64,000 nt of DNA from Candidatus Omnitrophota bacterium (GCA_963662715.1 OY759724.1:3044982-3108981), one strand, 5' to 3'. Shown: positions 2,665 to 21,914, counted from the stretch's first letter. Notes: generated by a model not told the origin, from the sequence alone. A program made the numbers and translations.

Positions 2665-2666
2665 AA

Positions 2667-5738: not shown

Positions 5739-6119
5739 ATGAAAAATAATGGGAACATAAATATTTCTCAAAATAAGGAAAAACAGAAGCATAATCATCG
5801 GCATTCAATAAAGGAAAGGCTTTTTTTGTTTTTTAAATGGTGGCTTGTTTTTACCGGCATTTATTCCGTCTCTTCTGTATGCCCTTTTTGCGGGAAGGTA
5901 GGCTGCCCCGTTGGTCTCGGAAGCGCTGGGGCCCTTGGAGCCTTTTTTGCTTTATTTATGCAAAATTGGAAACACCTGTTGCAAAAAATTCATTTTTTAA
6001 AAAAGGAAAAAACAGAGGTAACGAAAAAATTCGAAAAAGAAAAATTTTTCGCTAAGGGAGGAGGGGGATATGGAAAAGAAGGATTTGATAATAATCGGCG
6101 CGGGTCCGGCAGGTCTTAG
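5739..6119 (+). CDS. Hypothetical small membrane protein with CPxCG..GCP motif and Gly-zipper; Gly-rich tail
   Basis: 126-aa ORF; one hydrophobic helix, CPFCGKVGCPVGLGSAGALGAFFALF. The 3' 50 nt overlap the next gene in another frame, so the true end is uncertain. Confidence 0.35.
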   Translation: MKNNGNINISQNKEKQKHNHRHSIKERLFLFFKWWLVFTGIYSVSSVCPFCGKVGCPVGLGSAGALGAFFALFMQNWKHLLQKIHFLKKEKTEVTKKFEKEKFFAKGGGGYGKEGFDNNRRGSGRS

Positions 6120-6996
6120 TGCGGCAATTTGTGCGACGGATTTGGGCATTAAACCGCTAGTATTAGAAGAAAATATGCCCGGTGGTTTAGCCTCTGAGAT
6201 TCCTGTGTTGGAAAACTATCCGGGTTTTAGTGAAGGAATCAGCGGTAAAGATTTAATAGATAAATTGATTGAACAATGCAACAAAGCCTCGATAGAAATA
6301 CATCAATTTGAAAAAGTTTTTAATCTGAAATTTGAAGCAGACGTAAAAATTATTGAAACAGATAAAGCTCAATATAGAACCAATATTGTACTTATTGCTT
6401 CCGGAAGGCATCTCAGCATGCTTGGTGTTCCCGGTGAAAAAGAATTCAAGGGGAGAGGAGTAAGTTATTGCGCAGTATGCGACCGTGCTTTTTTTAAGGA
6501 TAGGAAAGTGTCCGTTATCGGAAAAGATGTTCATGCTGTTGAAGTTGCTTTATATTTAGCTGAATTGGCATCATTAGTGAATTTTATAAATTTAGGTAAT
6601 TGGCATAAGCCAAATGATATTTTCCTGAAAAAATTAGAAGGCCGAAATATAAATGTTCTTTCCGGGGTTGAAGTGAAGGAAATCAATGGAGACATTAAAG
6701 TAAAAACTGTGGTTTTATCGGATAAGGAAACAGGAGATATTCGCGAGATAGAAACAGACGGAGTGTTTTTACAGTTAGAAGAGGAGCCTAATAGTCAATT
6801 AGCAAAAAATGCCGGTATAAAGGTAAACGAAAAAGGGTATATCCTTGTTGATGAGAAAGGAAAAACTAATTTGGATGGTGTTTATGCCGCTGGTGACGTG
6901 ACGGATGGTTCGGTAAAAAAAGTAATAACATCTGCGGCCCAGGCATTTGTAGCTGTCAATGATATATTCGAGAAAAATCAAGGAAGGTTTCATTAA
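6070..6996 (+). CDS. Thioredoxin-reductase-like FAD/NAD(P)-dependent disulfide oxidoreductase
   Basis: 308 aa; GAGPAGLSAA FAD motif, redox CxxC (SYCAVCD), second Rossmann (VIGKDVHAVE), C-terminal GDV motif. Confidence 0.8.
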   Translation: MEKKDLIIIGAGPAGLSAAICATDLGIKPLVLEENMPGGLASEIPVLENYPGFSEGISGKDLIDKLIEQCNKASIEIHQFEKVFNLKFEADVKIIETDKAQYRTNIVLIASGRHLSMLGVPGEKEFKGRGVSYCAVCDRAFFKDRKVSVIGKDVHAVEVALYLAELASLVNFINLGNWHKPNDIFLKKLEGRNINVLSGVEVKEINGDIKVKTVVLSDKETGDIREIETDGVFLQLEEEPNSQLAKNAGIKVNEKGYILVDEKGKTNLDGVYAAGDVTDGSVKKVITSAAQAFVAVNDIFEKNQGRFH

Positions 6997-6998
6997 AT

Positions 6999-8771
6999 AT
7001 GCAGGAAAAGCGCATAGGTGTTTTTATTTGTCATTGCGGTAAGAATATTGCCGGAGGTGTGGATATAAAGGCTCTTGTCGAAAGCTCAAGAAGTCTTAAG
7101 GGAGTCGTCTTTGTTACAGAAAATAAATTTTCCTGTTCTGAAGAAGGTCAGGTTGCTGTTCAGGGTGCCATAAAGCACGAGCGTTTAGACAGAATTATTG
7201 TTGCTGCTTGTGATCCTGGGTTGCATCTACTGACTTTTCAAAGGTGCGGGCAGAAAGCGGGAATAGATTCTGCCTTCGTAGATTTAATTGATATTAGAAA
7301 ATGGACAATGCACAGTAGCCCTCATAAGGTTGATCCTCATCAAGCCTTAGAGAATTGCAAAAGACATATCGAACAAGCTGTAAAAAGGATGCGGTTAAAA
7401 CGCAAAATCCCCAGGGTTACTGTAAAAGTAAACTCTTCGGTTTTAGTTATCGGAGGAGGTGTCGCAGGATTAGAGGCCTCTTTAGATTTGGCGGATAAAG
7501 GATACAAAGTACATCTTGTTGAAAGGCTTGCGACCATCGGAGGCAAAATGGCCCTCCTTTATAAGGTCTTTCCTACAAATGATTGTGCGCCTTGTATATT
7601 AGCTCCCAAAACGGCGTACGCGAATGTGCATCCGAATATAAATTTGTTGACAAATGCGGAAGTTCAAAGCGTGGAAGGGTATATAGGAAATTACACCGTT
7701 ATCGTTAATCAAAAACCGCGTTACATTGACGAAAATAAATGTACTGGCTGTGGGTTATGTATAGAGAAGTGTCCCACAAAAATGGTTGATAACGAATTTT
7801 CCGCCGGAATTGGGGAACGCAAAGCCATCTATATTCCTTATGATCAGGCAATACCCAAAAAGGCAGTTATTGACAGTGCAAGTTGTCTGTATTTTAAAAA
7901 AGGGGCTTGCCGGTTATGCGAAAAAACCTGTCCGGCTCAGGCCGTAGATTTTGAACAACAGCCTAAGTCAATCAAGTTAAAAGTAGGCGCGATAATTGTT
8001 GCTACGGGTTTTGATGAATATAATCCTGTGTCGAAAACGGAGTATGGTTATGGACGTTACAAAAATGTTATCACCCAGTTTCAGCTAGCAAGATTTTTAG
8101 ATATAGACGGCCCTACGAAAGGAAAACTTTTAAGACCTTCAGACGGCAAAGAACCTAAAAATATTGTTATGATTCAATGTGTGGGCTCAAGGGATGAAAA
8201 TGCGAATAAATATTGTTCTGCTGTTTGTTGCATGTATGCCTTAAAGCACGCCCAGATAATAAAAGAGATGGTTTTGCCCAATACCGAAATTTATATTTGT
8301 TATATTGACATACGCACCGCAGGAAAAGATTTTGAGGAATATTATAAATATACAAGGGGATTGGGAATTAATTTTATTCGCGGAAGACCGGCTGAGATAG
8401 CAGAAAATGCCAAGACACGAAATCTTATTTTAAAAGTTGAAGATCCTGATATCAATGCCTTGATTAAAGTCGAAGCGGATTTAGTTGTGTTGTCCTGCGC
8501 GACTGTGCCTTCCAAAGGGACACAAAATCTTGCCGGGATACTAGGGATACATTTGGATGAAAATGGATTTTTTAAAGAAGTCCATCCTAAACTGCGTCCG
8601 GTAGAAACGAATGTCCGCGGCATTTATATTTGCGGTTCTGCACAGGGCCCCAAAGATATTCCGAATTCAATTGTCCAGGCAAAAGCGGTGGCTTCCTGCG
8701 CGGATGGCGAACTAAGAAAAGGAGAATTAGAACTTCCCGAAGCTATTGTAAAAGCAAATAAAGTCCCTTAA
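6999..8771 (+). CDS. HdrA-like flavin/FeS protein (heterodisulfide reductase subunit A family)
   Basis: 590 aa; MvhD-like Cys domain (GVFICHCGKNIAGG), FAD motif VIGGGVAGLEAS, two ferredoxin motifs (CTGCGLCIEKCP, CRLCEKTCP), and the HdrA-signature CxGxRDx6CSx2CC (CVGSRDENANKYCSAVCC). Confidence 0.85.
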   Translation: MQEKRIGVFICHCGKNIAGGVDIKALVESSRSLKGVVFVTENKFSCSEEGQVAVQGAIKHERLDRIIVAACDPGLHLLTFQRCGQKAGIDSAFVDLIDIRKWTMHSSPHKVDPHQALENCKRHIEQAVKRMRLKRKIPRVTVKVNSSVLVIGGGVAGLEASLDLADKGYKVHLVERLATIGGKMALLYKVFPTNDCAPCILAPKTAYANVHPNINLLTNAEVQSVEGYIGNYTVIVNQKPRYIDENKCTGCGLCIEKCPTKMVDNEFSAGIGERKAIYIPYDQAIPKKAVIDSASCLYFKKGACRLCEKTCPAQAVDFEQQPKSIKLKVGAIIVATGFDEYNPVSKTEYGYGRYKNVITQFQLARFLDIDGPTKGKLLRPSDGKEPKNIVMIQCVGSRDENANKYCSAVCCMYALKHAQIIKEMVLPNTEIYICYIDIRTAGKDFEEYYKYTRGLGINFIRGRPAEIAENAKTRNLILKVEDPDINALIKVEADLVVLSCATVPSKGTQNLAGILGIHLDENGFFKEVHPKLRPVETNVRGIYICGSAQGPKDIPNSIVQAKAVASCADGELRKGELELPEAIVKANKVP

Positions 8772-8805
8772 CTTTAATTATCGGTGATTTGAGAGGAGAT
8801 CCGAC

Positions 8806-9060
8806 ATGTTAAAACAAGAACAAGAAAAAATGGAAACAAAATGCAAGAAAATTATTGCGGAGCAGTTAGGAGTAAAATTCGAAGAATTAAAGCCAGATGC
8901 TTCTTTTGCTGATGATCTTGGTGCTGATTCTTTGGATTTGGTAGAACTTATTATGGCGTTAGAAGAAGAATTTAGTATTGAAATTCCTGATGAAGAAGCT
9001 GAAAAAATCAAAACAGTTGGCCAGGCAATAGAATATGTAAATAAAAGAATAGAGAAATAA
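8806..9060 (+). CDS. Acyl carrier protein (canonical AcpP-type, second copy in the window)
   Basis: 84 aa; DSLD phosphopantetheine-attachment motif ([18 protein letters not shown]); about 75% identical over the core to the fab-cluster AcpP at 40072; strong SD (GAGAGGAG) 7 nt upstream of the ATG at 8806. Confidence 0.85.
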
Positions 9061-9086
9061 ATATTTTAAAATCAGGAGGGACTGCC

Positions 9087-9356
9087 ATGGCAGAGGTTTA
9101 TGTGGAAGAATTTATGTCACCCGGATGTGTCGGTTGTCCGGTGGTAAAGGAAATGCTTAAAGTTTTATCAGAAGAAGTAACGGGCGAGGTAACGATAGAA
9201 GAAGTCGACATCACAGTTGATACGGCACGGGCATCTCAATACGGCGTCATGTCTGTTCCGGCTATAGCTATTAACGGTGAGCTTAAATTTATGGGCGTGC
9301 CTAAAAAAGAAGAATTAAAGCAGGCGCTCGTTGAAGGGCTTAAGGCAGATGAATAG
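9087..9356 (+). CDS. Small thioredoxin-fold (glutaredoxin-like) protein
   Basis: 89 aa; CVGCP active-site-like motif, thioredoxin-fold length; SD AGGAGG upstream. Confidence 0.7.
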   Translation: MAEVYVEEFMSPGCVGCPVVKEMLKVLSEEVTGEVTIEEVDITVDTARASQYGVMSVPAIAINGELKFMGVPKKEELKQALVEGLKADE

Positions 9357-9891
9357 TGAAGAAAAAAATAGTGATTTGGGAATAACGGTTTCCATATCGG
9401 AATGTGAGCCAAATTTTAAATTTGAGGTTTTATCTCATCCTGATGCCAGCGGATTAAATGCCTGCTTCAATTGCGGGACATGTACGGCAGGATGTCCTAT
9501 TCATGAAGTTTTTCCTGAATATAACCCCAGGAAACTGGCAAAGATGGTAAAGCTTGGTATGAAAAAACAGGTTTTAAGCAGCCCCTATATTTGGTATTGC
9601 GCTACCTGTCATAATTGCGAACAACGCTGCCCCCAAAATGTTAAATTTTTCAATATTTTGAATGTCTTGAAAAATTTGGCAGCCAGACAAGGTTATGCGC
9701 CGTCCTGCTGGATTCAACAGACCGAACAAATAGCAAAAACAGGCATAGTCTTTCCGACAGAAGATAGTTGGATCAAAAGAAGACAGGAAATGTCTCTCCC
9801 TTTTTTAAATCTAGATGGGGAAAAGGCAAAGAGAATAATTGAATCAAGCGGGATGAATGAAATTAAATCGAAGGTTAATTTGAATGAGTAA
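9349..9891 (+). CDS. HdrC-like 2x[4Fe-4S] ferredoxin subunit
   Basis: Track ORF starts at TTG 9331; ATG at 9349 overlaps the preceding stop (ATGAATAG). Motifs CFNCGTCTAGCP and CATCHNCEQRCP. Confidence 0.8.
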   Translation: MNSEEKNSDLGITVSISECEPNFKFEVLSHPDASGLNACFNCGTCTAGCPIHEVFPEYNPRKLAKMVKLGMKKQVLSSPYIWYCATCHNCEQRCPQNVKFFNILNVLKNLAARQGYAPSCWIQQTEQIAKTGIVFPTEDSWIKRRQEMSLPFLNLDGEKAKRIIESSGMNEIKSKVNLNE

Positions 9892-10759
9892 ATATGCTTT
9901 ATTTTTAGGTTGCACGACCCCAACTCAGGTACCGCAGTATGAGTTGTCCGCAAGATGGGTTTGTAAATATTTTGGCATTGAATTAATCGATATTAAAGAT
10001 TTTGTTTGCTGTGGTATTAATCAGGTTAATCTGGATATTGAGACAGGTTTTTCCTTGGCAGCTATGAATTTGGCTTTAGCGGAATCCGAAAAATTAGATG
10101 TTTTAACGCTTTGCGCCGCCTGCACCGGCGCCCTGGCTGAAACAATCGAAAAACTGAAGGACGAAGCAAGCAGAGATAAAGTAAACAAAAAATTAAAGAC
10201 GGTCGGATTAAAATATACAGGCCAATCTAAAGTAAAACATATATCGAGAGTTCTTTACGAAGATATCGGGTTAGAAACAATAAAAAAGGGAATAAAGAAA
10301 GATTTATCCGCACTGCATGTGGCACCTCATTACGGCTGCCATTATTTAAAACCAAAATCTGCTTTTGGTGATTTTGAAAAACCCGATAATCCCAAAAGGC
10401 TTCACCATCTCATTTCGGCTGCCGGGGCCCATCCTATTGAATATGAGACGCTTGGTTTATGCTGCGGGGGCAAAACTTTTCCTGTTACTAAAAATCTGGC
10501 TCATTCATTGGTACAAAAAAAGTTTGATAATTTGATGGATAAAGAAGCGGATGCGATGGTTCTTCAATGTCAGACTTGTTATCTTATGTATAGCGGCCAA
10601 CAAAAAGAGATAAATGAAAATTATGGCAAACGATATGATTTTCCGGTAATTCTGTATCCCCAGCTTCTCGGATTGGCTCTGGGCGCGGAGCCCAAGAAAG
10701 ATTTAGGCCTTGATTTAAACGAAATTTCAGTAAATCGAATTTTGGATAAGATATTATAA
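9884..10759 (+). CDS. HdrB-like protein with two CCG domains
   Basis: 291 aa; two cysteine-rich CCG signatures (FVCCGINQ and GLCCGGKTF .. QCQTCY); start overlaps the HdrC-like stop. Confidence 0.85.
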   Translation: MSKYALFLGCTTPTQVPQYELSARWVCKYFGIELIDIKDFVCCGINQVNLDIETGFSLAAMNLALAESEKLDVLTLCAACTGALAETIEKLKDEASRDKVNKKLKTVGLKYTGQSKVKHISRVLYEDIGLETIKKGIKKDLSALHVAPHYGCHYLKPKSAFGDFEKPDNPKRLHHLISAAGAHPIEYETLGLCCGGKTFPVTKNLAHSLVQKKFDNLMDKEADAMVLQCQTCYLMYSGQQKEINENYGKRYDFPVILYPQLLGLALGAEPKKDLGLDLNEISVNRILDKIL

Positions 10760-10788
10760 ATAAGCGGTAATTGTGACGGAGATAGTGC

Positions 10789-11475
10789 ATGAGCATAAAA
10801 GAAAATTATTTGAAAATTAGAAAAAAAATTCCGGATTATGTCCAGATAGTTTTAGCTGCCAAGATGAAGACTTCTGAAGAAATCAAAGAGGCTATTGATG
10901 CCGAAGCAACAATAATAGGTGAAAATTACGTACAGGAAGCTGAAAAAATATATGAGGCGTTAGGAGAAAAGGCTAAAAAAATTAAATGGCATATGATCGG
11001 TCCTTTGCAGAAAAATAAGATTAACAAGGCAGTAAAAATTTTTGATTGTATTCAGACGGTTGATTCTATTGAACTCGCTGATGCTATACATAAAAGAGCT
11101 GAGGTAATAAAAAAAGAAATGTCTGTTTTTATAGAGGTAAATATCGGCAACGAAATGACAAAGGCAGGCGTTAAACCGGAATACGGAGTGGTTGAAAAAT
11201 TAGCGCTACATATCGCAGGATTATTTTATTTAAAATTGGAAGGACTTATGACAATCGGCCCTAGAGTCGGCAACCCGGAAGACATCCGTCCATATTTCAA
11301 AGCAGTAAAAGAAATTTTTGATAAATTGCAGAGCGCGGGTATACCCAATACAGATTTAAAATATTTGTCCATGGGGATGTCCAATTCATACAAAATAGCC
11401 ATTGAGGAGGGAGCGAATATTATAAGGTTAGGAACTATTATTTTCGGAGCGCGCAAATGTGATTTAAGAAACTAA
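10789..11475 (+). CDS. yggS: YggS-family PLP homeostasis protein
   Basis: 228 aa; single alanine-racemase-N-like TIM barrel, typical YggS length and conserved K region (VQIVLAAK); C-terminal IIRLGTIIFGAR. Confidence 0.85.
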   Translation: MSIKENYLKIRKKIPDYVQIVLAAKMKTSEEIKEAIDAEATIIGENYVQEAEKIYEALGEKAKKIKWHMIGPLQKNKINKAVKIFDCIQTVDSIELADAIHKRAEVIKKEMSVFIEVNIGNEMTKAGVKPEYGVVEKLALHIAGLFYLKLEGLMTIGPRVGNPEDIRPYFKAVKEIFDKLQSAGIPNTDLKYLSMGMSNSYKIAIEEGANIIRLGTIIFGARKCDLRN

Positions 11476-11513
11476 GGGCATGAGATAAACACGGGTAGTG
11501 ATGGGGCAAAATT

Positions 11514-12143
11514 ATGAAAATAAAACCATTTGAAGAACATGTGGATCAATATGAAGATTGGTTTGAGAAAAATTATTGGGTCTATCAGTCAGAACTTCAG
11601 GCAGTAAAAGAATTGTTGCCTAAGCAAGGAAACGGCATTGAAATTGGTGTAGGAAGCGGTCGTTTTGCAGATCCCTTGGGAATACGTTTAGGTGTTGAGC
11701 CTTCGCCTAAAATGAGAGCACTGGCAAAAGCTCGAGGGATAGAAGTTATTGATGGAGTAGCCGAAGATATCCTTTTTAAAAATCCTCGATTTGATTTCGT
11801 GCTGATGGTCACAACGATCTGTTTTCTGGATGATATAGAAAAAGCATTTAAAAAAATCCATAGGATTCTAAACCCAAGCGGGCATTTGGTCATAGGATTT
11901 ATCGATAAAAACAGCCCTGTTGGAAAGATTTACCAGAAACACAAAAACGAAAGCGAGTTCTATAAAGTTGCAACTTTCTATTCTGTAGATAAAGTTGTGT
12001 CTTATTTAAAAAATGCCGGATTTAGCAACTTTGTATTTAAGCAGACTATTTTCAAAAATTTAAAAGAAATTAAAGACATTGAACCTATTCAGGATGGTTT
12101 TGGTGCGGGTTCTTTTGTCGTCATTAGAGCTTTAAAGGAATGA
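11514..12143 (+). CDS. Class I SAM-dependent methyltransferase
   Basis: 209 aa; motif I GIEIGVGSGRFA and post-I acidic residue. Confidence 0.75.
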   Translation: MKIKPFEEHVDQYEDWFEKNYWVYQSELQAVKELLPKQGNGIEIGVGSGRFADPLGIRLGVEPSPKMRALAKARGIEVIDGVAEDILFKNPRFDFVLMVTTICFLDDIEKAFKKIHRILNPSGHLVIGFIDKNSPVGKIYQKHKNESEFYKVATFYSVDKVVSYLKNAGFSNFVFKQTIFKNLKEIKDIEPIQDGFGAGSFVVIRALKE

Positions 12144-12147
12144 AGGT

Positions 12148-12507
12148 ATGAAAGTCGCAGTCATTGGAGCATCAAATAAACCGCATCGGTATTCTTATCA
12201 GGCTGTGGTTCTTTTAAAAGAAACAGGACACAAAGTTTATCCCATTCATCGAAAAATAAAAGAGATTGACGGGATTCCAGTTGTTCCAACCATTGAAGAG
12301 GTTAATGACTTAATTGATACGGTTACATTGTATATAAATGCTGTTTTTTCTAATGCTATCGGCAAAGATATTATTGCTAAAAAGCCCAAAAGAATAATTT
12401 TTAATCCCGGAGCTGAGAATCTGGAATTAGCAAATGAGGCGAGAGAGCAGGGTATAGATACAATTAATGCCTGCACATTAGTTATGCTAAAAACAGGTCA
12501 GTTTTAA
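12148..12507 (+). CDS. CoA-binding domain protein
   Basis: 119 aa; KVAVIGASNKPHRYSY N-terminus typical of the CoA_binding_2 family. Confidence 0.75.
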   Translation: MKVAVIGASNKPHRYSYQAVVLLKETGHKVYPIHRKIKEIDGIPVVPTIEEVNDLIDTVTLYINAVFSNAIGKDIIAKKPKRIIFNPGAENLELANEAREQGIDTINACTLVMLKTGQF

Positions 12508-12519
12508 GGAGGGAGTAAA

Positions 12520-12684
12520 ATGTCCATAATGAAAATTATTATAGGAATTTTAATCGGAGCATTGCTGGGGAGTGTGATGGGATATTTCGGTAAATGCTCA
12601 AGCGGTGTTTGCCCTTTGACAAGTACACCGCTAAGAGGGGCTCTTTGGGGAGCTTTCTTGGGATTAATGTTTGGATTAACTTAA
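12520..12684 (+). CDS. Small (54 aa) membrane protein with CxxxxC motif and glycine zipper
   Basis: Not in the ORF track (under 60 aa). ATG at 12520 preceded by AGGAGGGAG; MSIMKIIIGILIGALLGSVMGYFGKCSSGVCPL..GALWGAFLGLMFGLT*. Resembles the Cys/Gly segment of the 5739 ORF. Confidence 0.45.
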   Translation: MSIMKIIIGILIGALLGSVMGYFGKCSSGVCPLTSTPLRGALWGAFLGLMFGLT

Positions 12685-12704
12685 TGTAAAACGAGGAGGA
12701 GAGG

Positions 12705-13043
12705 ATGCTGGAAACAAATTTGAAACATTTAGAAACAAAAGATGAGGTAGAAGAATTATTAAAAAATAATGAAAAAGTCATGATTTGCTGTGGCCGAATG
12801 GGGCCGATGTGTATTCCTGTTTATGGGATTATGGAAAAATTAGAATCGCAATATTCACAGATTCAGTTCAGGGATATGGATTTTGATATCCCTGTTGCCT
12901 CTTTTATTAAAGATTTGCCCGAATGTGCTTCGTTTACGGGATTGCCTTTTACGGTCTATTTTAAGAACGGATCGATCGTTAAGGCGACAACCAGCATTCA
13001 GAATGAAAAGCAAATAGTTGATATTTTAGAAAAAATTTTTTAG
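12705..13043 (+). CDS. Thioredoxin-like protein with atypical active site
   Basis: 112 aa; thioredoxin-fold length, Cys pair in CCGRMGPMC at the usual CxxC position; SD GAGGAGGAGAGG upstream. Confidence 0.6.
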   Translation: MLETNLKHLETKDEVEELLKNNEKVMICCGRMGPMCIPVYGIMEKLESQYSQIQFRDMDFDIPVASFIKDLPECASFTGLPFTVYFKNGSIVKATTSIQNEKQIVDILEKIF

Positions 13044-13045
13044 AA

Positions 13046-13543
13046 ATGAGCATGAATGAATCCTTTCATAAATGTTCAAAGTGTGGGAATAATTTGCCGG
13101 AAATAAATATTTTCGTTATTGACGACGAATATATTTGTATTCATTGTTTATATGGTAAGGCCGAACCTTTCCCGATTTATCCTATAGGTATCGTGCAAAA
13201 TGATCTAAGGCGTAACAGAAAAAATTTTGGTACGGTTGGCAAAGGCGGCCTATCATGTATTAAGCTGTTCCCATCACAAAAGCCATTTCTGTATAAAATT
13301 GAAGAAGAAAGGTTTTTGACGATTGTTTATTATCTTCATCAAGCAAAGCAGATTAAATCAGTCTTTAAAAGAGGATTGGACGGGAAGGAAGTCGGTGTTT
13401 TCTCTTCCCGTACGCCGGATAGGCTTTCACGCATTGCTATTCAAAATGTTAATCTGGTGAAAGTTGAAGGGACTAATCTTTACGTTGAGGGATTAGATGC
13501 TATCAATGGCAGTCCGGTTTTAGACATAAAACTTAAAATATAG
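13046..13543 (+). CDS. TsaA/YaeB-like (UPF0066) domain protein with N-terminal zinc ribbon
   Basis: 165 aa; CSKCG..CIHC ribbon, then GVFSSRTPDR..GLDAINGSPVLDIKLKI matching the TsaA-like beta-barrel signature. Confidence 0.7.
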   Translation: MSMNESFHKCSKCGNNLPEINIFVIDDEYICIHCLYGKAEPFPIYPIGIVQNDLRRNRKNFGTVGKGGLSCIKLFPSQKPFLYKIEEERFLTIVYYLHQAKQIKSVFKRGLDGKEVGVFSSRTPDRLSRIAIQNVNLVKVEGTNLYVEGLDAINGSPVLDIKLKI

Positions 13544-13562
13544 TGATCAAAAAGGGTGAATT

Positions 13563-14135
13563 ATGAAAATATCTATAATTTTTCACAGTGTATGCGCAAA
13601 TAATTATTTGATGGCTAAGGCTTTTTATGAAAATTTAAAAATCAAAAAACAAGATGTTTCATTGTTTAGAGTTGCTGATCCCGATTGGGCAGAACAAGAA
13701 AGTGTTCCTCTCGTGGCAAAAAAAAATTTGAGAAATATGATGGCTCTTCCCATGGCTACTCCAGAAGCCATGTTTGAAAGCGATCTTATTATAATGGGTT
13801 CGCCGACGTATTTTGGAAATGTATCGGCCGAAATGAAAATTTACATGGACTCCATTGCTAAATATTGGATAAAAGCAGAATTAGCAGGGAAAAGGCTTGC
13901 TGCTTTTACCTCAACAGGCAATCCCCAAGGCGGCGGAGACTTGTGTCTTCAGGTTATTCACACATTTGGAATGTATATGGGAATGCTTTGCGTACCTGTT
14001 CCAACGACTTTAATTTCAGGTGCAGATATCCATCCCTTTGGCATCATGCATTATTCCTATTCGAAGTACGGCGAAAAATTAGATAAAAAAACACAAACAG
14101 TAATAGAAAATTTTTCTGAGTATTTAATACAATAA
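13563..14135 (+). CDS. Flavodoxin-like fold NAD(P)H-dependent FMN reductase family protein
   Basis: 190 aa; MKISIIFHS.. N-terminus, MGSPTYFGNVSAEMK flavin-binding loop. Confidence 0.75.
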   Translation: MKISIIFHSVCANNYLMAKAFYENLKIKKQDVSLFRVADPDWAEQESVPLVAKKNLRNMMALPMATPEAMFESDLIIMGSPTYFGNVSAEMKIYMDSIAKYWIKAELAGKRLAAFTSTGNPQGGGDLCLQVIHTFGMYMGMLCVPVPTTLISGADIHPFGIMHYSYSKYGEKLDKKTQTVIENFSEYLIQ

Positions 14136-14270
14136 ATCAAAGGTTGATGATATTATTATTTTAAAATTTTTTGATTATAAAAAATGGGGGGTTGAGGGTA
14201 ATCTCACCATTTCGCTTAAGAAAAATAATAAATAAAAAAATTAGCCTGCGGCGCTTATAGCAAGATAAAA

Positions 14271-14355
14271 GGTGTTTAACATGGCGCCGTTTTATGTGTG
14301 ATTTTGGGGTGATTTGTTAAACATCTAGGAGGTGGTGTTTAACACGTGTTAAACA
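14271..14355. repeat. Iteron-like set of four TGTTTAACA / TGTTAAACA 9-mers, including a perfect 20-bp palindrome TGTTTAACACGTGTTAAACA
   Basis: 9-mers at 14273-14281, 14315-14323, 14336-14344 and 14347-14355; the last two form a perfect palindrome around a central CG (14336-14355). The first copy is bracketed by the inverted GC hexamers CGGCGC (14249-14254) and GCGCCG (14284-14289). Confidence 0.6.
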
Positions 14356-14544
14356 TTAAGAGAAGCAAGAAATTTTAAAAAACTCGTCGTTGTGCTCTTG
14401 ACATCTGATGGGCTATATGGCACACTTGCACTCTATCCGCATTAATAATTACTCTTCGTTGAATCTCAATCCAAAGATGTGGTTTTACTAGAAAATAATC
14501 AAGCATCTAGGTTGTAACATATATAAAATTTAAAGGATTTAAAA

Positions 14545-14586
14545 GGCCATCCCAGATATCTGGCTTATAGGGGTGGTCTTTTTTCT
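14545..14586 (+). terminator. Bidirectional terminator-like hairpin containing a perfect 12-bp palindrome CCAGATATCTGG
   Basis: GGCCATCCC..GGGGTGGTC outer stem (two G-U pairs) around the inner palindrome 14552-14563, followed by CTTTTTTCTT; the opposite strand also has a T-rich tail. Confidence 0.4.
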
Positions 14587-14728
14587 TGGCCACTTGCTTT
14601 AAATTACGCAAAATGCCAGCCAAGAAAAATTTTTTTAAAAAAGTATGGCATATTTTTGCAAACAAATGACATATATATGTAGGAGCAAGTTGTACGATAG
14701 ATCTTTATTTACTTGAAAAGAGGTTGTT

Positions 14729-14926
14729 ATGCATAGCAACGAAATGAACGCATTATTTGAAATATACAATGAAGCAAAGAACCGGATTTTGTTATATGTT
14801 GAAGCTTCTGTGCATCCCGAGCAATTTAAAGCGCTACGCAAGCTTATTCTTGATGAACTTGGCAGAAGCGGGGCTGAAGGTAAGGTGCGGAATTTATTGA
14901 GTGAAAAGGACAGGGCAGGCAAGTAA
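14729..14926 (+). CDS. Hypothetical protein (65 aa), first gene of the recombinase module
   Basis: AAGAGG SD 8 nt upstream of the ATG; no recognisable domain. Confidence 0.4.
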   Translation: MHSNEMNALFEIYNEAKNRILLYVEASVHPEQFKALRKLILDELGRSGAEGKVRNLLSEKDRAGK

Positions 14927-14957
14927 TGAATAAAGCGAAGGGGGTGGTGTAAAATGA

Positions 14958-15335
14958 ATGAAAAAGAATGAATTTTATAAAATTCAGGCGGAAGCGTTCT
15001 GGGATTATGAAAAGAGGTTTTCGTATAGGAATTTCAATAAACATAACATCAAAGACCCGGTGAAATTCCTACACGGTAACAAGTCCGAGCTAGAGCGAGG
15101 TAACTTTAAAGATTACGACAGAATAAAACTGTTCAATCAATGGGCAACATCAAAAGACATTACAGGCGCAGACCGTCAGGAAATATGGAAAATAGTGAGA
15201 ACTACAAAAAAGCAGGATTATGTTATCACGGAAGGAAGTGAAGAGTTTATCAGGCTTTCAGAAGTTATCAGCATTTTGCATAATGAGAACATGAAGCAGT
15301 TAGGTGATATGCTATCCAAGAAAAAATGTGGTTGA
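14958..15335 (+). CDS. Hypothetical protein (125 aa)
   Basis: ORF with AGGGGGTGGTG SD-like sequence upstream; no recognisable domain. Confidence 0.45.
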   Translation: MKKNEFYKIQAEAFWDYEKRFSYRNFNKHNIKDPVKFLHGNKSELERGNFKDYDRIKLFNQWATSKDITGADRQEIWKIVRTTKKQDYVITEGSEEFIRLSEVISILHNENMKQLGDMLSKKKCG

Positions 15336-15367
15336 CAATAACTGTAAAGCAACGTAAAGTATTTCTT

Positions 15368-15553
15368 ATGAAAATATACACGGTTACAAAAACTGCGGAA
15401 AAACTAGGAATATCACGCCAGTCGCTCCATCAATGGATTAAAAAAGGATGGGTAAAACCTAAATACGATTACAGGAATTATCCTGTATTTACTGCTGACG
15501 ATATTAAAAAAATTCAGCAATGGATGGGAACACTAAAAGAATCATGCGAGTAG
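15368..15553 (+). CDS. Small helix-turn-helix DNA-binding protein (excisionase/MerR-like; candidate recombination directionality factor)
   Basis: Track ORF 15326..15553; likely start ATG 15368 (MKIYTVTKTAEKLGISRQSLHQWIKKGWVKP..). HTH_17-like; sits immediately 5' of the recombinase, which overlaps its end. Confidence 0.6.
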   Translation: MKIYTVTKTAEKLGISRQSLHQWIKKGWVKPKYDYRNYPVFTADDIKKIQQWMGTLKESCE

Positions 15554-17193
15554 CCATTTACACAAGAGTATCAACAGAAGACCAAGCCCGTGAGGGGACT
15601 TCTTTGGAGGTTCAGCGGGAGTTTCTTGAGAATTACGCAAAGCATCAGGGGTGGTCTATATATTATCCGGAAAAAGGTCGGATTTACGAAGATGACGGTT
15701 ATTCTGGAAATCTAAGCAGACGACCTGCTTTGAATAAACTTCTTAGCCACGCAAACCAGAAAAAATTTGATATTGTACTTGTCTATAAAATCGACCGTTT
15801 CGCAAGAAACAACAGGCTTCTGCTTAATCTTGTCGAAGACCTCGACCAAAGGGGAATAGGTTTTAAATCAGCTACGGAGTCATTTGATACCGTTACTGCC
15901 GCCGGCAAAATGGCGCTGTCAATGCTTGGAACGGTAGCGCAGTTTGAGCGGGACAGGATTATTGAACGGGTATTTCCGGGGATGATAAAAGGCGTGGAGC
16001 GAGGGAACTGGCAGGGTGCAAGATATTCGCCCTATGGATATTTTTATAATAAACAAAAGAAGCTTCTTGAAGTGGTGCCGGAGGAAGCAAATGTTGTAAA
16101 AATGATTTATACAATGTATCTGTCAGGGCAAAGCACGCCGCAAATAGCAGGGTATCTTTACGATAAAAAATATAAAACCAGAAGCGGCGGGAAATTTCAT
16201 ACAAAACTGGTCGCAGATATTTTAAAAAATCAGTTATATATCGGCAATCTTGTATGGAACAAGCATCATTACGATAAGACGAAAAAGACCCTCAAAGGCA
16301 ATCGCTATGTTAAAAACGATCCGGAAAAAGTTGTAATCTCTAAAGGAAAACATATACCGATAATTGACCGGGAAGATTTTGAAGCCGTACAGCAAAAGCT
16401 TGAAAAAAGCAGAAAAGGCATGGGAAACAGAAAGGGATGTAAAGAATATCCTTTGACAGGTATCATCAAATGCGCTAAATGCGGGCATAATTTCCATGGC
16501 TCACTTCTGACAGCATCAAGGGAAAATAAAAAAACGAAACTGAAAAGAAGATATTACAGATGTTCCGGCAGAGCAACGCACAATGTTAGATGTGATAATG
16601 TTTTTGTGAAAGCAGTTGAGGTAGAGAAAGAAGTTTACAGAATCTTGGAAACAATACGGCTGGAAGATATAAATGAGGCGTTACGGACTTCAGCATCATC
16701 AAATAATATAACGGAAGCAAACGAAGAAGTGATCGACAAGATCCATGAATTGAAGATGGATTTAGCGAAGAATTTAAAAAAGCAAGAAAGGCTCGGGAAA
16801 ATCTTTACTGAAGGGCTGATTGCAATGGAAGCCTACAAGCCCCAGGTCATTCCCCTCAGAGATGAAGAGAAGGAAATAAAAGGTAAAATCAAAAAGCTTG
16901 AGCTGAACTTAATTGAAAGAGAACGTTCAGAAGAATACAAAAAATTAGTAACAGCCGTTATTGAACACATTGACGCAGTCAGGAATATGGACATCGCAGG
17001 CAAGAAAGGACTGCTGAAAATAGTGTTTAAAAACATAATAATTGAAAATGGAAAGATAACAGATTTCGAGCTGTATCAACCGTTTAAAAAGCTATACGAA
17101 GGAGCAGCGATAAAGTGCCAAATGCAGGAAATAAAAGAACTTATGACAATTCCGGAGTGCGTGTGTACATGCGTACTTACGGATGCCAGATGA
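15544..17193 (+). CDS. Large serine recombinase (resolvase/invertase catalytic domain + recombinase domain + zinc ribbon + coiled coil)
   Basis: N-terminus MRVAIYTRVSTEDQ with catalytic Ser, ..VYKIDRFARN.. motif, and a zinc ribbon CAKCGH..CSGRATHNVRC. About 550 aa; the track ORF begins 24 nt earlier at 15520. The last 79 nt overlap miaB. Confidence 0.9.
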   Translation: MRVAIYTRVSTEDQAREGTSLEVQREFLENYAKHQGWSIYYPEKGRIYEDDGYSGNLSRRPALNKLLSHANQKKFDIVLVYKIDRFARNNRLLLNLVEDLDQRGIGFKSATESFDTVTAAGKMALSMLGTVAQFERDRIIERVFPGMIKGVERGNWQGARYSPYGYFYNKQKKLLEVVPEEANVVKMIYTMYLSGQSTPQIAGYLYDKKYKTRSGGKFHTKLVADILKNQLYIGNLVWNKHHYDKTKKTLKGNRYVKNDPEKVVISKGKHIPIIDREDFEAVQQKLEKSRKGMGNRKGCKEYPLTGIIKCAKCGHNFHGSLLTASRENKKTKLKRRYYRCSGRATHNVRCDNVFVKAVEVEKEVYRILETIRLEDINEALRTSASSNNITEANEEVIDKIHELKMDLAKNLKKQERLGKIFTEGLIAMEAYKPQVIPLRDEEKEIKGKIKKLELNLIERERSEEYKKLVTAVIEHIDAVRNMDIAGKKGLLKIVFKNIIIENGKITDFELYQPFKKLYEGAAIKCQMQEIKELMTIPECVCTCVLTDAR

Positions 17194-18470
17194 ATGAATA
17201 TGACTCGGAACTGATCCGTTCTATTCTGATTCAGGAAGGCTATTCCTTTGTCGAATCCGCGGAAGACGCGGAGATCATTCTCTTAAATACCTGTTCTGTC
17301 CGGGAAAACGCCCACCGCAAAGTCATCGGGCACATCCACGCCCTGCAGCATTCTTTAAAAGAACGCCCTTTCTTGTTGGGCATATTGGGCTGCATGGCCG
17401 TTAACCTGAAGGACGATTTGCTGAACGACCCTTCATTAAACATCAACTTCGTTATCGGGCCGGACGGGTACCGCCGCCTGCCGGATATCATTTCCCGGAC
17501 ATCTTCCCGGCATAATAAAGCGGAAGACACATGCCTCTCGGGACTGGAAACCTATACGGGCATTTCTCCCAGCAGAATCAGCCAGGTGAATGCCTGGGTG
17601 GCTGTCATGCGCGGATGCAACAATTTCTGCACATTCTGCATTGTTCCTTACACCAGAGGGAGGGAAAGAAGCCGGCCCAAACAGGACATCCTCCAAGAAA
17701 TCCAGAATCTCGTTGCCCGGGGCTATAAACAGGTGACTTTGCTGGGACAGAATGTCAACTCGTATCAAGACTCCCGGACAGACTTTGCCGACCTGTTGGA
17801 AGCTGTCAGCGAAGTGCCGGGGCTTGAACGGATCCGGTTTATGTCGCCCCATCCCAAAGACTTTCTGGACCGGGTCATAGATGTTGTCGCACACAACCCA
17901 AAAGTATGTGAACATCTCCACTTGCCGCTTCAGGCAGGGAACTCCCGGGTGCTTCAGCTCATGAACCGGACATACGACCAGGAACAATTCTTGAAGTTAG
18001 TGGATAAGATCCGCAACGCCTGCCCTGATGTGGCTTTAACCACAGATGTTATCGTTGGATTTCCAACGGAAACCGCAGAAGAATTCGAAGATACGGTAAA
18101 AGTGATGCGGCAGGTGGAATTTGATGCGGCTTTCATTTTCAAATACTCTCCCCGCAAGGGGACCATAGCTCAAAAAAAGTATCCGGACGATGTGCCGGAG
18201 GAAGAAAAAACCCGGAGGATTGTTCATCTGAACGAACTGCAAAAAGACATATCATTACGCAAAAATCAACAGTTGGTCGGTACGGTACAGGATGTCCTTA
18301 TTGAAGATCTTCATTCCCAGCGTTCGCAAAACGATATCCAGGGCCGGACCCGGGGAAACAAACTGGTGATTGTTTCTGATTCCCGGTCGCTGATGGGAGA
18401 GACTTTGCGGGTAAAGATATCTGATGCCAGCCCGCATGTTTTGAAAGGTCAGCTTGAGGCCAGCCAATAA
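17115..18470 (+). CDS. miaB: tRNA-i6A37 methylthiotransferase MiaB
   Basis: 451 aa; N-terminal MTTase motif ..TYGCQMNEYDSE.., radical SAM CxxxCxxC (CNNFCTFC), C-terminal TRAM domain. Start uncertain: GTG 17115 (has GGAG SD), GTG 17157 or ATG 17169. Confidence 0.9.
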   Translation: MPNAGNKRTYDNSGVRVYMRTYGCQMNEYDSELIRSILIQEGYSFVESAEDAEIILLNTCSVRENAHRKVIGHIHALQHSLKERPFLLGILGCMAVNLKDDLLNDPSLNINFVIGPDGYRRLPDIISRTSSRHNKAEDTCLSGLETYTGISPSRISQVNAWVAVMRGCNNFCTFCIVPYTRGRERSRPKQDILQEIQNLVARGYKQVTLLGQNVNSYQDSRTDFADLLEAVSEVPGLERIRFMSPHPKDFLDRVIDVVAHNPKVCEHLHLPLQAGNSRVLQLMNRTYDQEQFLKLVDKIRNACPDVALTTDVIVGFPTETAEEFEDTVKVMRQVEFDAAFIFKYSPRKGTIAQKKYPDDVPEEEKTRRIVHLNELQKDISLRKNQQLVGTVQDVLIEDLHSQRSQNDIQGRTRGNKLVIVSDSRSLMGETLRVKISDASPHVLKGQLEASQ

Positions 18471-18517
18471 CCTGATATTTAGCACAGGATGTATTATTGC
18501 AGAAGGGGAAAAGGGAC

Positions 18518-19219
18518 CTACGTGTTTTGTCTTCTGAAGATCGTTCCAATAAGGCCAAAGCCAAATAATAATATGCTTGCTGGCTCAGGGACAACCGGAG
18601 ACTCGTATTCTAATTGCAAATACGGACTATAACCTTCGAGTCCGTCTTTTGTAATACCTCCTATTGTTGCGTTTGCGGTCATAGATTCTGCGATCGCTAA
18701 CATTAAACTTAATTGATCGTCTGAATCCAGAAGTTGGTCATTCGCTTCAGCAGGAATTCCGCCGGCAAATAAATCCCAATGCAGCCAGGAAGCCGTGCGG
18801 GGATACGTTTGGGTATCTAAAACTCCTGAATCCGGGCCGGGGGCATTCTGCCATGTTATGGTTGATTCCTGCCACGAGTCATCTGACACAAAAAAAACTG
18901 AAGATTGTATGTCTTGACCACCGCCGGCAGAATAGGTTTGTATGTATGCGTAAAAATCCGCGCCTATTAAATTAGCTCCATTGGGAATACTGCTTAAATC
19001 AAATTTAAAATACGCATACTCCAAAATGTGTGTCGTTGTCGTCGATTGATCCATAATTTCAAACCCGCCTGTACCTCCATGATTATCAGTCGGAAAAAAA
19101 CTGCTTGTGTACGAATCTTCTACAGCAACTAAATTGACAATCGTTGAAGCTGACACTGTAGAAGCCGGCACGCCCCAAAAGCTTAGAAAGAACAAAAATC
19201 CAGTAATTAATTTTTTCAT
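18518..19219 (-). CDS. Secreted PEP-CTERM-anchored protein
   Basis: Signal peptide MKKLITGFLFFLSFWGVPASTVSA; C-terminal VPEPAS + hydrophobic helix + RRQ (PEP-CTERM sorting signal). Confidence 0.75.
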   Translation of the reverse strand: MKKLITGFLFFLSFWGVPASTVSASTIVNLVAVEDSYTSSFFPTDNHGGTGGFEIMDQSTTTTHILEYAYFKFDLSSIPNGANLIGADFYAYIQTYSAGGGQDIQSSVFFVSDDSWQESTITWQNAPGPDSGVLDTQTYPRTASWLHWDLFAGGIPAEANDQLLDSDDQLSLMLAIAESMTANATIGGITKDGLEGYSPYLQLEYESPVVPEPASILLFGFGLIGTIFRRQNT

Positions 19220-19628
19220 GTCTTTTCCTTAAATGTTGAATATTGATTTCATTATTTAATTTAGTTCGAGTTTAATAATTATATATATTAATTTTTAAAG
19301 CGTCAACGTGACAGTACTGGTCAAACATGGACAACCCAAACAAATCAGAAAATGAATAACTTAAACACAAATATATGATTTCAGTAATTGAAAACGTCCT
19401 TTACTCCTTAAATACGAGAATATTTCGAAGTAACAGGGGCAGACATCTTGAATCAGGACTCAAACCAGATTTAAAAATAATAAAAAAATTAACTGACATC
19501 ATTGGCTAAATAAGAATTTGCTGTGCACTTCATATCCGGGCTTGATTTTCAACTCATTTTGAGCTATATTGCTCATTTAAACAGGACGTTGATATTTAAA
19601 AATCAGCCTTTGATACAAAAAGTTTTTT

Positions 19629-20660
19629 ATGACAGTCCCCAAACAATTAACTCCGGAAGAGCTTTATCATATTCTTAAAAATGTGAAGCTGGGCGCTTTT
19701 GTCTGCCAATACTCCCTCAAAAAATGCGAAGAGCTTACGCCTTTGATCAATGAAATCAACGCATTAAAAGTGCAGATGGACGCCGTCATTCTTGCGCACA
19801 CCTACGTTGTTCCCGAAATACTCTACGGGGTGGCCGACTTTGTGGGGGATTCCTATGCTTTGAGTAAAGATGCCATGCAGACGAAAGCTAAAAGAATCAT
19901 CTTTGCCGCTGTGAAATTCATGGGAGAAACAGCCCAAATTCTTAATCCCGACAAAGAGGTCCTTCTTCCTGCGAAGGACGGAGGGTGCACCCTGGCCGAC
20001 GCGATCAATGCCGAGCAGGTCCGTCAACTGCGCAAGGAGTTTCCCGGATACACTTTTGTCTGCTATATCAATACGACCGCGGATGTCAAAGCTGAATGCG
20101 ATGTCTGTGTGACCTCGGCCAATGTCTGTGATATTGTCCAAAGGATTCCCCAGGAGAAAATTTATTTTCTGCCAGATAAATATATGGGGCAGAATCTTAT
20201 CTATGAAATGGAACGAAGAGGGGTTAAGAAAGATATCCGTTTTTTTACCGGGACGTGCGATGTCCATAAAGAATATTCCTTAGAGCAGGTCGACAAAGTC
20301 CGCCTTGAGTATCCGGAGGCAAAAATTGTCAGCCACCCGGAATGCAAACCCGAAGTCTGCGAGGCCTCTGATTATGTCGGCAGCACATCCCAGATGCTGC
20401 AGTATATGCGTAAAACCGAATCAACGCAATTCTTAATGCTCACCGAATGCGGTTTATCCTCCAGGCTGGAAGTCGAATTTCCGCAGAAACAGTTTGTGGG
20501 ATCCTGCACCTTGTGCGATTTCATGAAATCCAATGATTTACACGATATCAAACGTGTCCTTACTGCGCCAACAGATAAGGACCGTATCTTTGTCCCTCCC
20601 GACATCCGGGAAAAAGCGAAAAGATGCATAGAAGCGATGTTTCTCTACGCGCAAAAATAA
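19629..20660 (+). CDS. nadA: Quinolinate synthase NadA
   Basis: 343 aa; conserved Cys ligands and NadA-like blocks (ILAHTY.., ..FMGET.., ..HPEC..). Confidence 0.9.
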   Translation: MTVPKQLTPEELYHILKNVKLGAFVCQYSLKKCEELTPLINEINALKVQMDAVILAHTYVVPEILYGVADFVGDSYALSKDAMQTKAKRIIFAAVKFMGETAQILNPDKEVLLPAKDGGCTLADAINAEQVRQLRKEFPGYTFVCYINTTADVKAECDVCVTSANVCDIVQRIPQEKIYFLPDKYMGQNLIYEMERRGVKKDIRFFTGTCDVHKEYSLEQVDKVRLEYPEAKIVSHPECKPEVCEASDYVGSTSQMLQYMRKTESTQFLMLTECGLSSRLEVEFPQKQFVGSCTLCDFMKSNDLHDIKRVLTAPTDKDRIFVPPDIREKAKRCIEAMFLYAQK

Positions 20661-20774
20661 TTCTTCCTTCCGCGTCTGATCACTGTCCCAGCCTGAAAAC
20701 CATTGAATAAATTGACATCAGTTCCCGCCTATGTTAAGATTTTCGATACTTGATAATATTAAAAAAATAAAGTC

Positions 20775-21914
20775 ATGAAAACAAACCAGTTAGGAATCGT
20801 CGAGACAAAATTCTATAAGCTCGGGGCCTGTCCGCATGAGTTGCAACTGAAAAGCGGGGCAACGCTGGGCCCGGTCACCTTGGCCTATGAAACATACGGG
20901 ACATTGAACGAAGAGAAAACAAACGCGATCCTCATCTGCCACGCGCTCACCGGGGATGCTCATGCCGCGGGTTTTCACGCAGATGATAAGAAACCCGGGT
21001 GGTGGGACAAGATGATCGGTCCGGGGAAATCCTTTGATACGAATAAATACTTCGTGGTGTGCTCCAACGTTATCGGCTCTTGCAAGGGCAGTACCGGCCC
21101 CAGTTCTATCAACCCGCAAACCGGCAACCCCTACGGGCTGAGCTTTCCGGTCATCACCATCGAAGATATGGTGCACGCCCAGAAATACCTTGTAGAAAAT
21201 CTGGGGATAAAGAAACTATTAGCCGTCGCCGGCGGTTCGATGGGGGGGATGCAATGTTTGACCTGGGCGGTCCTTTACCCGGAGATGGTTCATTCCGTTA
21301 TTCCCATTGCGACAAACTACCGGCATTCAGCCCAGCAGATTGCTTTTCACGAGGTAGGGCGGCAGGCGATCATGTCTGACCCGGACTGGCAGGACGGGGA
21401 TTATTACGGAAAGACGATTCCCTCCCGAGGACTGGCCCTTTCGCGTATGGTCGGGCATATCACGTATATGAGCGAAAAGTCCATGGAGGAAAAGTTCGGG
21501 CGTAAATTATTCAGCAGGGAACGCGTCGGTTATGATTTCTCGGTCGATTTCGAGGTCGGCAACTATTTGAGGTACCGGGGAGACAGTTTTGTCCAGCGGT
21601 TTGACGCGAATTCCTACCTGTATATCACCAAAGCCCTGGATTATTTTGACTTGACCGAGGAAAAAAGTCTTGTTGAGATATTTAAAGATATTCAATCGAA
21701 ATTCCTGGTGATCTCTTTCACGTCTGACTGGCTTTACCCTCCGCACCAGTCGGAAGAAATTGTACGGGCCCTAAAGATCAACGACGTCGACGTGTCCTAT
21801 ATCGCCATCAATTCCTCTTACGGACACGACGCTTTTCTGGTGGAGAATACCGGACAGGCCCATATGATCGTGCATTTTCTGGCCCGGATGCTTAACGAAG
21901 TGAGTAACCCTTAA
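20775..21914 (+). CDS. metX: Homoserine O-acetyltransferase MetX
   Basis: 379 aa alpha/beta hydrolase with nucleophile elbow GGSMGGMQ, followed by metW. Confidence 0.9.

Follow-up and report, generated by a model that had tools for sequence, protein, structure and literature searches.

Why does the base composition of one bacterial contig change abruptly within the overlap of two genes? The question is raised by a 64,000-nucleotide stretch of DNA from a Candidatus Omnitrophota bacterium (GCA_963662715.1 OY759724.1:3044982-3108981; hereafter the window), in which the gene for a large serine recombinase (LSR) runs into the 5' end of miaB, a gene for tRNA modification, with AT-rich DNA on its left and GC-richer DNA on its right. 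An earlier note on this sequence had offered two readings: that the AT-rich DNA was a single foreign island of 17 kb or more, brought to the 5' end of miaB by the recombinase, or, slightly favoured there, that the contig was a chimera of two genomes. From the comparisons described below, we consider it likely that the switch is a genuine junction, formed by LSR insertion at a shared hot spot, and not a chimera. It would represent the right-hand junction of a site-specific insertion at the first miaB codons, the inserted module (14137-17193) belonging to an Omnitrophota-wide LSR family and supplying, with its last ~80 nucleotides, the ribosome-binding site (RBS), start codon and leader of miaB.

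The switch proved as sharp as had been claimed. Counted over 1 kb at a time, the GC content is 0.34-0.42 over 1-17 kb and 0.41-0.53 over 17-64 kb, with one dip to 37.5% (0.375) at 19-20 kb, and the GC skew, counted likewise, goes from +0.11..+0.33 left of the step to ~0 right of it. Over 200 nucleotides at a time, the GC content rises from 0.37 (17000-17199) through 0.44 (17100-17299) to 0.51 (17150-17349), so that the step, from ~37% to ~47-50%, falls inside 17100-17200, within the 79 nucleotides shared by the LSR and miaB open reading frames (ORFs). The tetranucleotide and codon comparison proposed in the earlier note also separates the two halves: after normalisation for composition, the tetranucleotide profiles of left and right correlate at 0.77-0.85 and those within the right half at 0.94-0.97, and the mean GC content at third codon positions (GC3) is 0.32 in the left genes, 0.38 in the LSR module and 0.55 in the right genes. 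The features on which the argument turns are as follows.

1-14136, plus strand: AT-rich left block, 36-38% GC, GC3 0.32, strong positive GC skew; continues left of the window.
14137-14728, plus strand: non-coding leader of the LSR module, with operator-like TGTTTAACA boxes at 14272-14356.
14729-14926, plus strand: small ORF of 65 amino acids; homologues not found in Pfam and PHROG scans.
14958-15335, plus strand: ORF of 125 amino acids, kept beside related LSRs.
15326/15368-15553, plus strand: MerR/excisionase-like helix-turn-helix (HTH) protein; Pfam MerR_1 2.2e-6, PHROG excisionase families ~4e-5.
15520/15544-17193, plus strand: LSR of 557/549 amino acids; the 549-residue form is identical to database protein P0241.
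17099-17182, plus strand: miaB RBS GAAGGAG (17099-17105), GTG start (17115) and leader, in the +2 frame of the LSR 3' end; the P arm.
17181-17183, plus strand: putative crossover point, …TACTTACGG|ATGCCAGATGAA…, where the GC content switches.
17115-18470, plus strand: miaB, with UPF0004, Radical_SAM and TRAM domains; host DNA from ~17183 on.

The junction itself can be read from the way in which the two genes are interlocked. The miaB ORF that opens with GTG at 17115 overlaps the LSR ORF by 79 nucleotides, its UPF0004 domain begins at residue 16, and the LSR stop codon is a TGA inside the Gln-Met-Asn codons of miaB. Other candidate starts of miaB are GTG 17157 and ATG 17169. The leader ahead of this domain is conserved among the window and two related loci, L029 and L028; because in L028 it precedes DNA other than miaB, the leader belongs to the LSR module and not to miaB. 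Alignment with MiaB homologues, suggested earlier as a way to locate the native N-terminus, gave a consistent answer: in the closest relatives that are free of an LSR, L025 and L026, the protein starts with MNVYLRTYGCQMN and MKKVYIRTFGCQMN, respectively, and the leader is absent. Since the RBS, start codon and leader of miaB lie inside the LSR 3' end and travel with it, the inserted DNA rebuilds the miaB 5' end, and the miaB ORF in the window is indeed intact with its RBS and start drawn from the insert. At its right end the module reads …GTGTACATGCGTACTTACGG, and breakpoints between the compared loci converge on the GG of …TACGG|ATGCC…. Identity ends at this same GG in the P arms of the window and L028, in inverted copies found in L012 and L016, and in RibD_C cassettes of L026 and L028; we infer the exact dinucleotide from this comparison. 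By these alignments, the composition step at ~17181 is the point where the module ends and host miaB begins. The LSR adjoins miaB directly, with no cassettes between them in the window.

The 550-residue recombinase of the earlier note holds up, with 549 residues, or 557 from an alternative start. Its Pfam domains are Resolvase (PF00239, 2.4e-36, residues 11-164), Recombinase (PF07508, 4.4e-25) and Zn_ribbon_recom (PF13408, 2.9e-12). In an alignment with the catalytic domain of the TP901-1 integrase (E 3.5e-25), VAIYTRVSTEDQ falls on the catalytic-serine motif VAIYTRVSTTNQ, and the protein also aligns with SPbeta SprA over residues 51-501 and matches the PHROG 95 integrases. With a resolvase domain followed C-terminally by the Recombinase and zinc-ribbon domains, it is, on domain order, a bona fide large serine recombinase. 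Among the phage and plasmid LSRs of the collections searched, none is more than 33% identical to it, and the closest LSRs of viral contigs in IMG/VR are 27-30% identical.

Scans of genome and metagenome collections, together with a protein search, revealed the family to which this recombinase belongs; the protein search gave at least 655 hits at E <= 1e-40, nearly all of the named ones from Omnitrophota. Besides the window, the LSR/miaB junction is found at seven independent loci (L001/L015, L012, L013, L016, L029 from Ca. Kaelpia imicola, L102 and L103/L104), with metagenome-assembled genomes (MAGs) of NCBI among the contigs. Compared with the window, LSR identity at these loci is 45-68%, whereas that of MiaB is only 35-42%. 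At all seven the register is the same: the LSR stop is the TGA in CA(G/A)-ATG-AA of an invariant G-C-Q-M-N motif, and an RBS, a start and a MiaB leader of 14-20 amino acids lie in the +2 frame of the last ~80 nucleotides of the LSR gene, again leaving an intact miaB whose RBS and start come from the insert. In most related loci with DNA downstream of the LSR, miaB is the next gene and overlaps it, the exceptions being L028 and L030. The protein tail …[A/V/D][A/V][R/K]* is a translation of the target site, and 93 of the 120 best family proteins end in this way; about 20 full-length members carry tails longer by 15-25 amino acids, which read the cassette-side GGCTGACCGATGGATGCACTGGG (…DRWMHWG…). 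As far as these alignments tell, the fixed target of the family is the first miaB codons, …T(A/T)(C/T)GG|(A/C)TG(C/T)CA(G/A)ATGAA….

The recurrence of the junction bears directly on the chimera, in which DNA of an AT-rich organism would have been joined to that of a GC-richer one at or near a shared mobile element. Composition, GC3 and skew do differ sharply, the nearest relatives of the left and right halves come from separate contigs of a single sample (ERZ21869602), and each half holds an acyl carrier protein (ACP) gene. Against these points, the frame-exact junction at 17.18 kb recurs in seven other contigs, NCBI MAGs included, as a site-specific arrangement, and the LSR (P0241) and MiaB (P0001) each have a 100% identical match recorded on one contig of 3,360,633 bp (NCBI, ENA). 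Three related contigs, L025, L026 and L027, independently show the same kind of AT-rich/GC-rich juxtaposition, L027 being an independent assembly in which the left block again lies beside GC-rich DNA; joining at 14.14 kb would presuppose a shared repeat, which L027 lacks at that point. The gene content listed earlier was confirmed (Map at 214-927, ACP genes at 8806-9060 and 40048-40311, rplM/rpsI at 44728-45573), but the argument from housekeeping paralogues built on it is weak. The two ACP genes are 68% identical; the left one, flanked by hdrA and a glutaredoxin-like gene, belongs to an Hdr/thioredoxin cluster and not to a fab operon, and its product matches that of L027 at 100% identity; the other lies between fabG and fabF. 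We regard a chimeric assembly as highly improbable, and that the 17.18-kb junction is a real LSR site as very probable.

The right half of the window is collinear with L025 and L026 (53-87% amino acid identity), which also hold the closest relatives of its MiaB (67-68% identical), the named relatives of this protein being from Omnitrophota. The order miaB, nadA, hydrolase, metW, DAO, nfu, rrf2, sufBCDS is common to all three. In L025 and L026 the GC content also steps exactly at the miaB start, from 31-45% upstream (over at least 10 kb) to 50-56% downstream, and no intact LSR was found upstream of miaB in either. What lies there instead is a series of 5-6 co-oriented junction repeats (L025:3664-10025, L026:3315-10028), each consisting of a miaB-like start (ATG, Lys-rich, M-K-K-V/F-Y-L-K-x-F-G) followed by GGCTGACCGATGG(A/T)TGCA. 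The repeat pattern has 4 matches in L025 and 3 in L026, compared with 0.22 expected and 0 of 100 shuffles reaching these counts; the window has 0. Between the repeats stand units of 1-3 genes, encoding acetyltransferases, methyltransferases, RibD_C, DUF924 and DeoC proteins, and others.

The link between such arrays and the recombinase is provided by L028 and L026. In L028, an LSR 71% identical to that of the window is followed by a junction of this type and then by cassettes, with an example of a P-P' junction at 11600-11700, while the array of L026 opens with a relic of an LSR 3' end (3220-3342, E 4e-5) cut by an IS3-like pseudogene. A RibD_C cassette is common to the two loci (72% amino acid identity); its homology stops at the GG, and both copies end in a start-mimic ATGCATAAAAAA…GG that overlaps the stop codon of the gene. 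Target-end repeats bounding units, as well as units devoid of a recombinase, are thus features of L025, L026 and L028, and the window has no second copy of the repeat. As a separate observation, a unit of 470 nucleotides without an ORF (L025:9557-10025) lies between the last junction repeat of L025, with its decoy ORF MKSIFLKTYGWQMDALGYDNN…, and the real miaB start.

From these structures a mechanism may be proposed. Because the miaB 5' end is rebuilt by the insert, insertion would leave miaB active, and because the rebuilt junction still resembles the target, further units could be inserted at the same place. Repeated insertion would explain the cassette arrays that lie between the LSR, or its relic, and miaB in the closest relatives; the comparative structure of the loci suggests that the cassettes are mobile, and that the arrays may have grown by tandem accretion. 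The window would then be the simplest state of the system, with the LSR directly against miaB. A further-reaching version, which we put forward only tentatively, is that of an integron-like gene-capture platform in Omnitrophota, built on an LSR in place of a tyrosine recombinase. In such a platform the LSR gene would end in a miaB-start-like site, and circular cassettes with a matching P-P' site would insert before miaB, each bringing a fresh RBS, start and leader for miaB and leaving a short decoy ORF; the window would be an 'empty' platform, and L028 and L026 loaded ones.

Two of the seven loci show an additional arrangement. In L012 and L016, the last 158 and 222 nucleotides of the LSR gene, respectively, recur as inverted copies, the miaB leader included (97% and 92% identity), at the far side of a module of 3.0-3.8 kb, the copies being located as follows.

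L012:2372-2529 and 5975-6132: inverted-repeat copies.
L016:122-343 and ~2906-3127: inverted-repeat copies.

The inverted copy ends at the same GG and continues with the cassette-side-like GGATGACC…; it encodes a truncated peptide, 'MPEK…VYIRTFG*', and in the LSR frame a tail '…LSDDLMFRLYNVLFSFFRIQ', which is the real C-terminus in the family proteins P0345 and P0354. The arrangement may be an invertible configuration. A SIR2_2-domain protein and a UvrD-like helicase, resembling defence-type cargo, are encoded beside or inside the LSR module of L012 (L012:304-4488).

How much of the AT-rich DNA arrived with the recombinase is a separate matter. The left block encodes Map, HD and NUDIX proteins, a B12-radical SAM protein, thioredoxins, a TrxB-like protein and HdrA, and further ACP, HdrC/B, YggS, a methyltransferase, a TrmO-like protein and FMN reductase. 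Its part from 967 to 14136 is collinear with L027 (ERZ21869602 ctg94587l), which belongs to a 592-kb contig of the sample that also gave L025, at 86-92% nucleotide identity, and the similarity stops just past the stop codon of the FMN-reductase gene. There, L027 continues (17140-21773) with a terminator-like hairpin and then with DNA of 47-50% GC that encodes a PASTA-domain protein, a cupin and an Fe-dependent repressor. The block of L027 adjoins this PASTA-region DNA and not an LSR and miaB, so that the same AT-rich block has two different GC-richer neighbours in two assemblies. A tRNA-like remnant at the block end of L027, suspected by eye, was not confirmed by a tRNA scan.

This comparison bears on the first reading of the earlier note. 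The part of it that holds is the arrival of foreign AT-rich DNA at the 5' end of miaB by means of the recombinase, which agrees with the same-register junction in seven contigs and with the same GC switch in the nearest relatives; a single 17-kb element is probably not correct, since L027 separates the block (1-14136) from the module (14137-17193). A single island of 17 kb or more would have entered miaB as one unit, carrying the left block as its cargo, integrating by the LSR module and having its other end beyond the left edge of the window; this reading keeps the real LSR junction of our explanation and departs from it only in the division of the inserted DNA into units. Several observations agree with it: the block and the module are similar in GC content (0.365-0.38 and 0.376) and share a positive GC skew, no internal junction turned up between the two, and related LSR elements, with the recombinase at the far right, can extend over 8-10 kb or more (L028, L029, L103). 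It is nevertheless unlikely, as the L027 block ends at the same point without an LSR module; in addition, the module core (125-residue ORF, HTH gene and LSR) is common to L010, L028 and L029, with which nothing of the left block is shared, and the related elements differ from the block in their cargo (Replic_Relax, ThiF/E2, MT-A70). On balance, we see the chances as even that the left block is a unit separate from the LSR module.

Another possibility is that only the ~3-kb module is foreign and that the left block is native AT-rich chromosome, either already upstream of miaB or moved there by rearrangement. The metabolic and housekeeping gene content would suit it, as would the tetranucleotide correlation with the right half, 0.77-0.85 versus 0.40-0.49 for the L028 and L029 elements, and ~90% nucleotide identity to L027 is what a congeneric genome would show. 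A GC3 of 0.32 versus 0.55, combined with the step in GC skew, is however large for one genome, and the two halves lie at discordant distances from their relatives: the best database match of HdrA is 95% identical, whereas the best non-self match of MiaB is 68% identical, both relatives coming from one sample. The block is again flanked by DNA of 47-50% GC in L027, and L025 and L026 hold unrelated AT-rich DNA at the same place. We find a native block quite improbable and lean towards its horizontal acquisition; most likely it is older accessory or island DNA at the hot spot, neither a part of the 3-kb module nor the genome of another organism.

Several points weigh against the interpretation that we favour. 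Neither a left junction of the module nor a repeat of its right junction was found within 1-17 kb: a second att copy was sought among direct and inverted repeats in 13.5-17.4 kb and by self-BLAST of the junction versus the whole window, so that the second junction copy which the earlier note had proposed to look for at the other end of the element is absent from the window. The sole left-junction candidate, 14606-14648 (ATGCCAGCCAAGAAAAATTTTTTTAAAAAAGTATGG), is weak and of low complexity. The left block itself has no junction repeats, and its genes are metabolic and housekeeping rather than mobile in type; being tightly collinear with L027, it could be ordinary chromosome of odd composition. 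Finally, the LSR of L030, the closed genome of Ca. Velamenicoccus archaeovorus (CP019384, 658764-680464), is 48% identical to that of the window and adjoins a Na/H exchanger gene, not miaB, though with a cassette-type junction.

In L030 the 3' end of the LSR gene reads VYIRTIG|WPL…, and the GC content falls from 55-61%, in a giant Big_1 gene, to 36-45% at ~3.5 kb upstream of the LSR. Other candidate sites were rejected. The stretch 14606-14648, taken as a relic of an older miaB-start mimic, was not recovered by a position-weight matrix of the P arms, and the best non-self hit of this matrix, inside hdrA on the opposite strand, is a chance match. A tRNA-type att site was dismissed after tRNA scans of the window and six loci had found none, and 71 single matches of the junction 16-mer in IMG/VR were considered noise.

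Upstream of the recombinase, the set of features described earlier is present in full: an HTH excisionase-like gene, two small ORFs and a non-coding stretch with palindromic boxes, in which 593 nucleotides (14136-14728) contain no plus-strand ORF. Four TGTTTAACA/TGTTAAACA boxes cluster at 14272-14356, and one of them forms a perfect 20-nucleotide palindrome, TGTTTAACACGTGTTAAACA. With one mismatch allowed, the whole window contains 10 matches, compared with 3.4 expected, and 0 of 100 shuffles reach 10; no counterpart of the cluster was found in any of the related loci fetched. The cluster is probably an operator for an HTH protein. A promoter and terminator scan of 14.0-15.6 kb gave signals at background level, and Rfam had no match at the gathering score in the window and none at all in 14-15 kb; in the related loci it gave one sub-threshold small RNA match, in L012. 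The 125-residue ORF is 38-40% identical to ORFs at the equivalent position in L010, L028 and L029 and has no match in Pfam and PHROG scans. The HTH gene lies directly upstream of the LSR, and one is also present upstream of the LSR in L010, L018, L028, L029, L030 and L104; its product is a candidate directionality factor or regulator.

The module contains no phage structural, packaging or lysis genes, its PHROG matches being of the integrase and excisionase types only, and Pfam and PHROG scans found no conjugation genes in it; relatives of the 125-residue ORF and of HdrA were not found in the viral contigs of IMG/VR. A second, small serine recombinase of the CcrA/DsiA type is likewise missing: tblastn of the LSR versus the rest of the window gave nothing significant, and no such partner appears in the gene lists of L028, L029, L102 and L103. 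To the right of the junction, a 1.16-kb AT-rich insert (18471-19628) separates miaB from nadA in the window, the gap being ~100 nucleotides in L025 and L026; it holds the gene of a PEP-CTERM-anchored protein on the minus strand (18518-19219).

Several known systems resemble this one in part. The composite SCCmec/SCC (staphylococcal cassette chromosome) islands of staphylococci are inserted by CcrA/B at rlmH (orfX) and accrete in tandem, including pseudo-SCC units that lack a recombinase. A large serine recombinase, a conserved RNA-modification gene that is kept intact as the target, tandem accretion and recombinase-less units are common ground with the miaB system; SCC, however, uses the 3' end of its target and a pair of recombinases, whereas here it is the 5' end and there is no small partner. 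The ssrA-specific islands of Dehalococcoides are tandem low-GC islands with a serine integrase, DsiB (McMurdie et al. 2011, PMC3146451). They share with the miaB system a serine recombinase of ~540 amino acids, a conserved single-copy gene whose end is the insertion site, islands of low GC content where synteny is broken, and tandem units bounded by target-end repeats, among them units without an integration module, interpreted there as mobilizable in cis. Their target, though, is the 3' end of an RNA gene, whereas the target at miaB is the 5' coding end, so that every unit has to bring an RBS, a start codon and N-terminal codons with it. The system described here also differs in having no DsiA/CcrA-type small recombinase, an LSR gene that spans the junction, and smaller units in its relatives (0.5-3 kb). 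By analogy, these two kinds of island are the closest counterparts of the miaB system.

Other likenesses are narrower. The study of the dusA islands (Farrugia et al. 2015, PMC4482086) counts only a few tRNA-modification genes among the known targets, one being rimO, which is MiaB-like. These islands too insert in the 5' end of a tRNA-modification gene and restore it, but their integrases are of the tyrosine type, the integrase ORF does not run into the target, and cassette arrays are absent. A likeness to integrons is seen in L026 and L028, where a recombinase gene stands at one end of a co-oriented array of accessory cassettes, mostly of one gene each (acetyltransferases, methyltransferases, RibD_C, DUFs), and a recombination-type site recurs between the cassettes. 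This resemblance is limited to the architecture of the array: the recombinase is of the serine and not the IntI-type tyrosine class, the array is anchored to miaB, the window holds no cassettes and, unlike attC hairpins, the repeats of the relatives imitate, to judge by sequence, the start of a host gene. The TP901-1, A118/comK and SPbeta SprA/spsM integrases have the same domain architecture and a gene at the element edge beside the att site; those elements typically split the target gene, whereas the insert at miaB rebuilds it. In the searchable literature we found nothing relevant on a serine recombinase at miaB, on integron-like cassettes of serine recombinases or on serine recombinases of Omnitrophota. 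The feature in the window is, in our reading, an LSR integrative module with a new target, and insertions that rebuild a start codon, together with cassette arrays at miaB, are new at the level of the family.

For the assembly, this answers the question of quality: the sharp GC step in the 3.36-Mb Omnitrophota contig is most likely biology and not a chimera. A large uncharacterised LSR family with a predictable, conserved target, the UPF0004 start of miaB, should help in finding islands in Omnitrophota MAGs and may provide new integrases whose att sites are known. The comparisons between loci also point to small cassettes being stacked by an LSR where a protein-coding gene begins, each cassette rebuilding the translation start; if true, this would be a mechanistic parallel to integrons and to the SCC and ssrA islands in a poorly known phylum.

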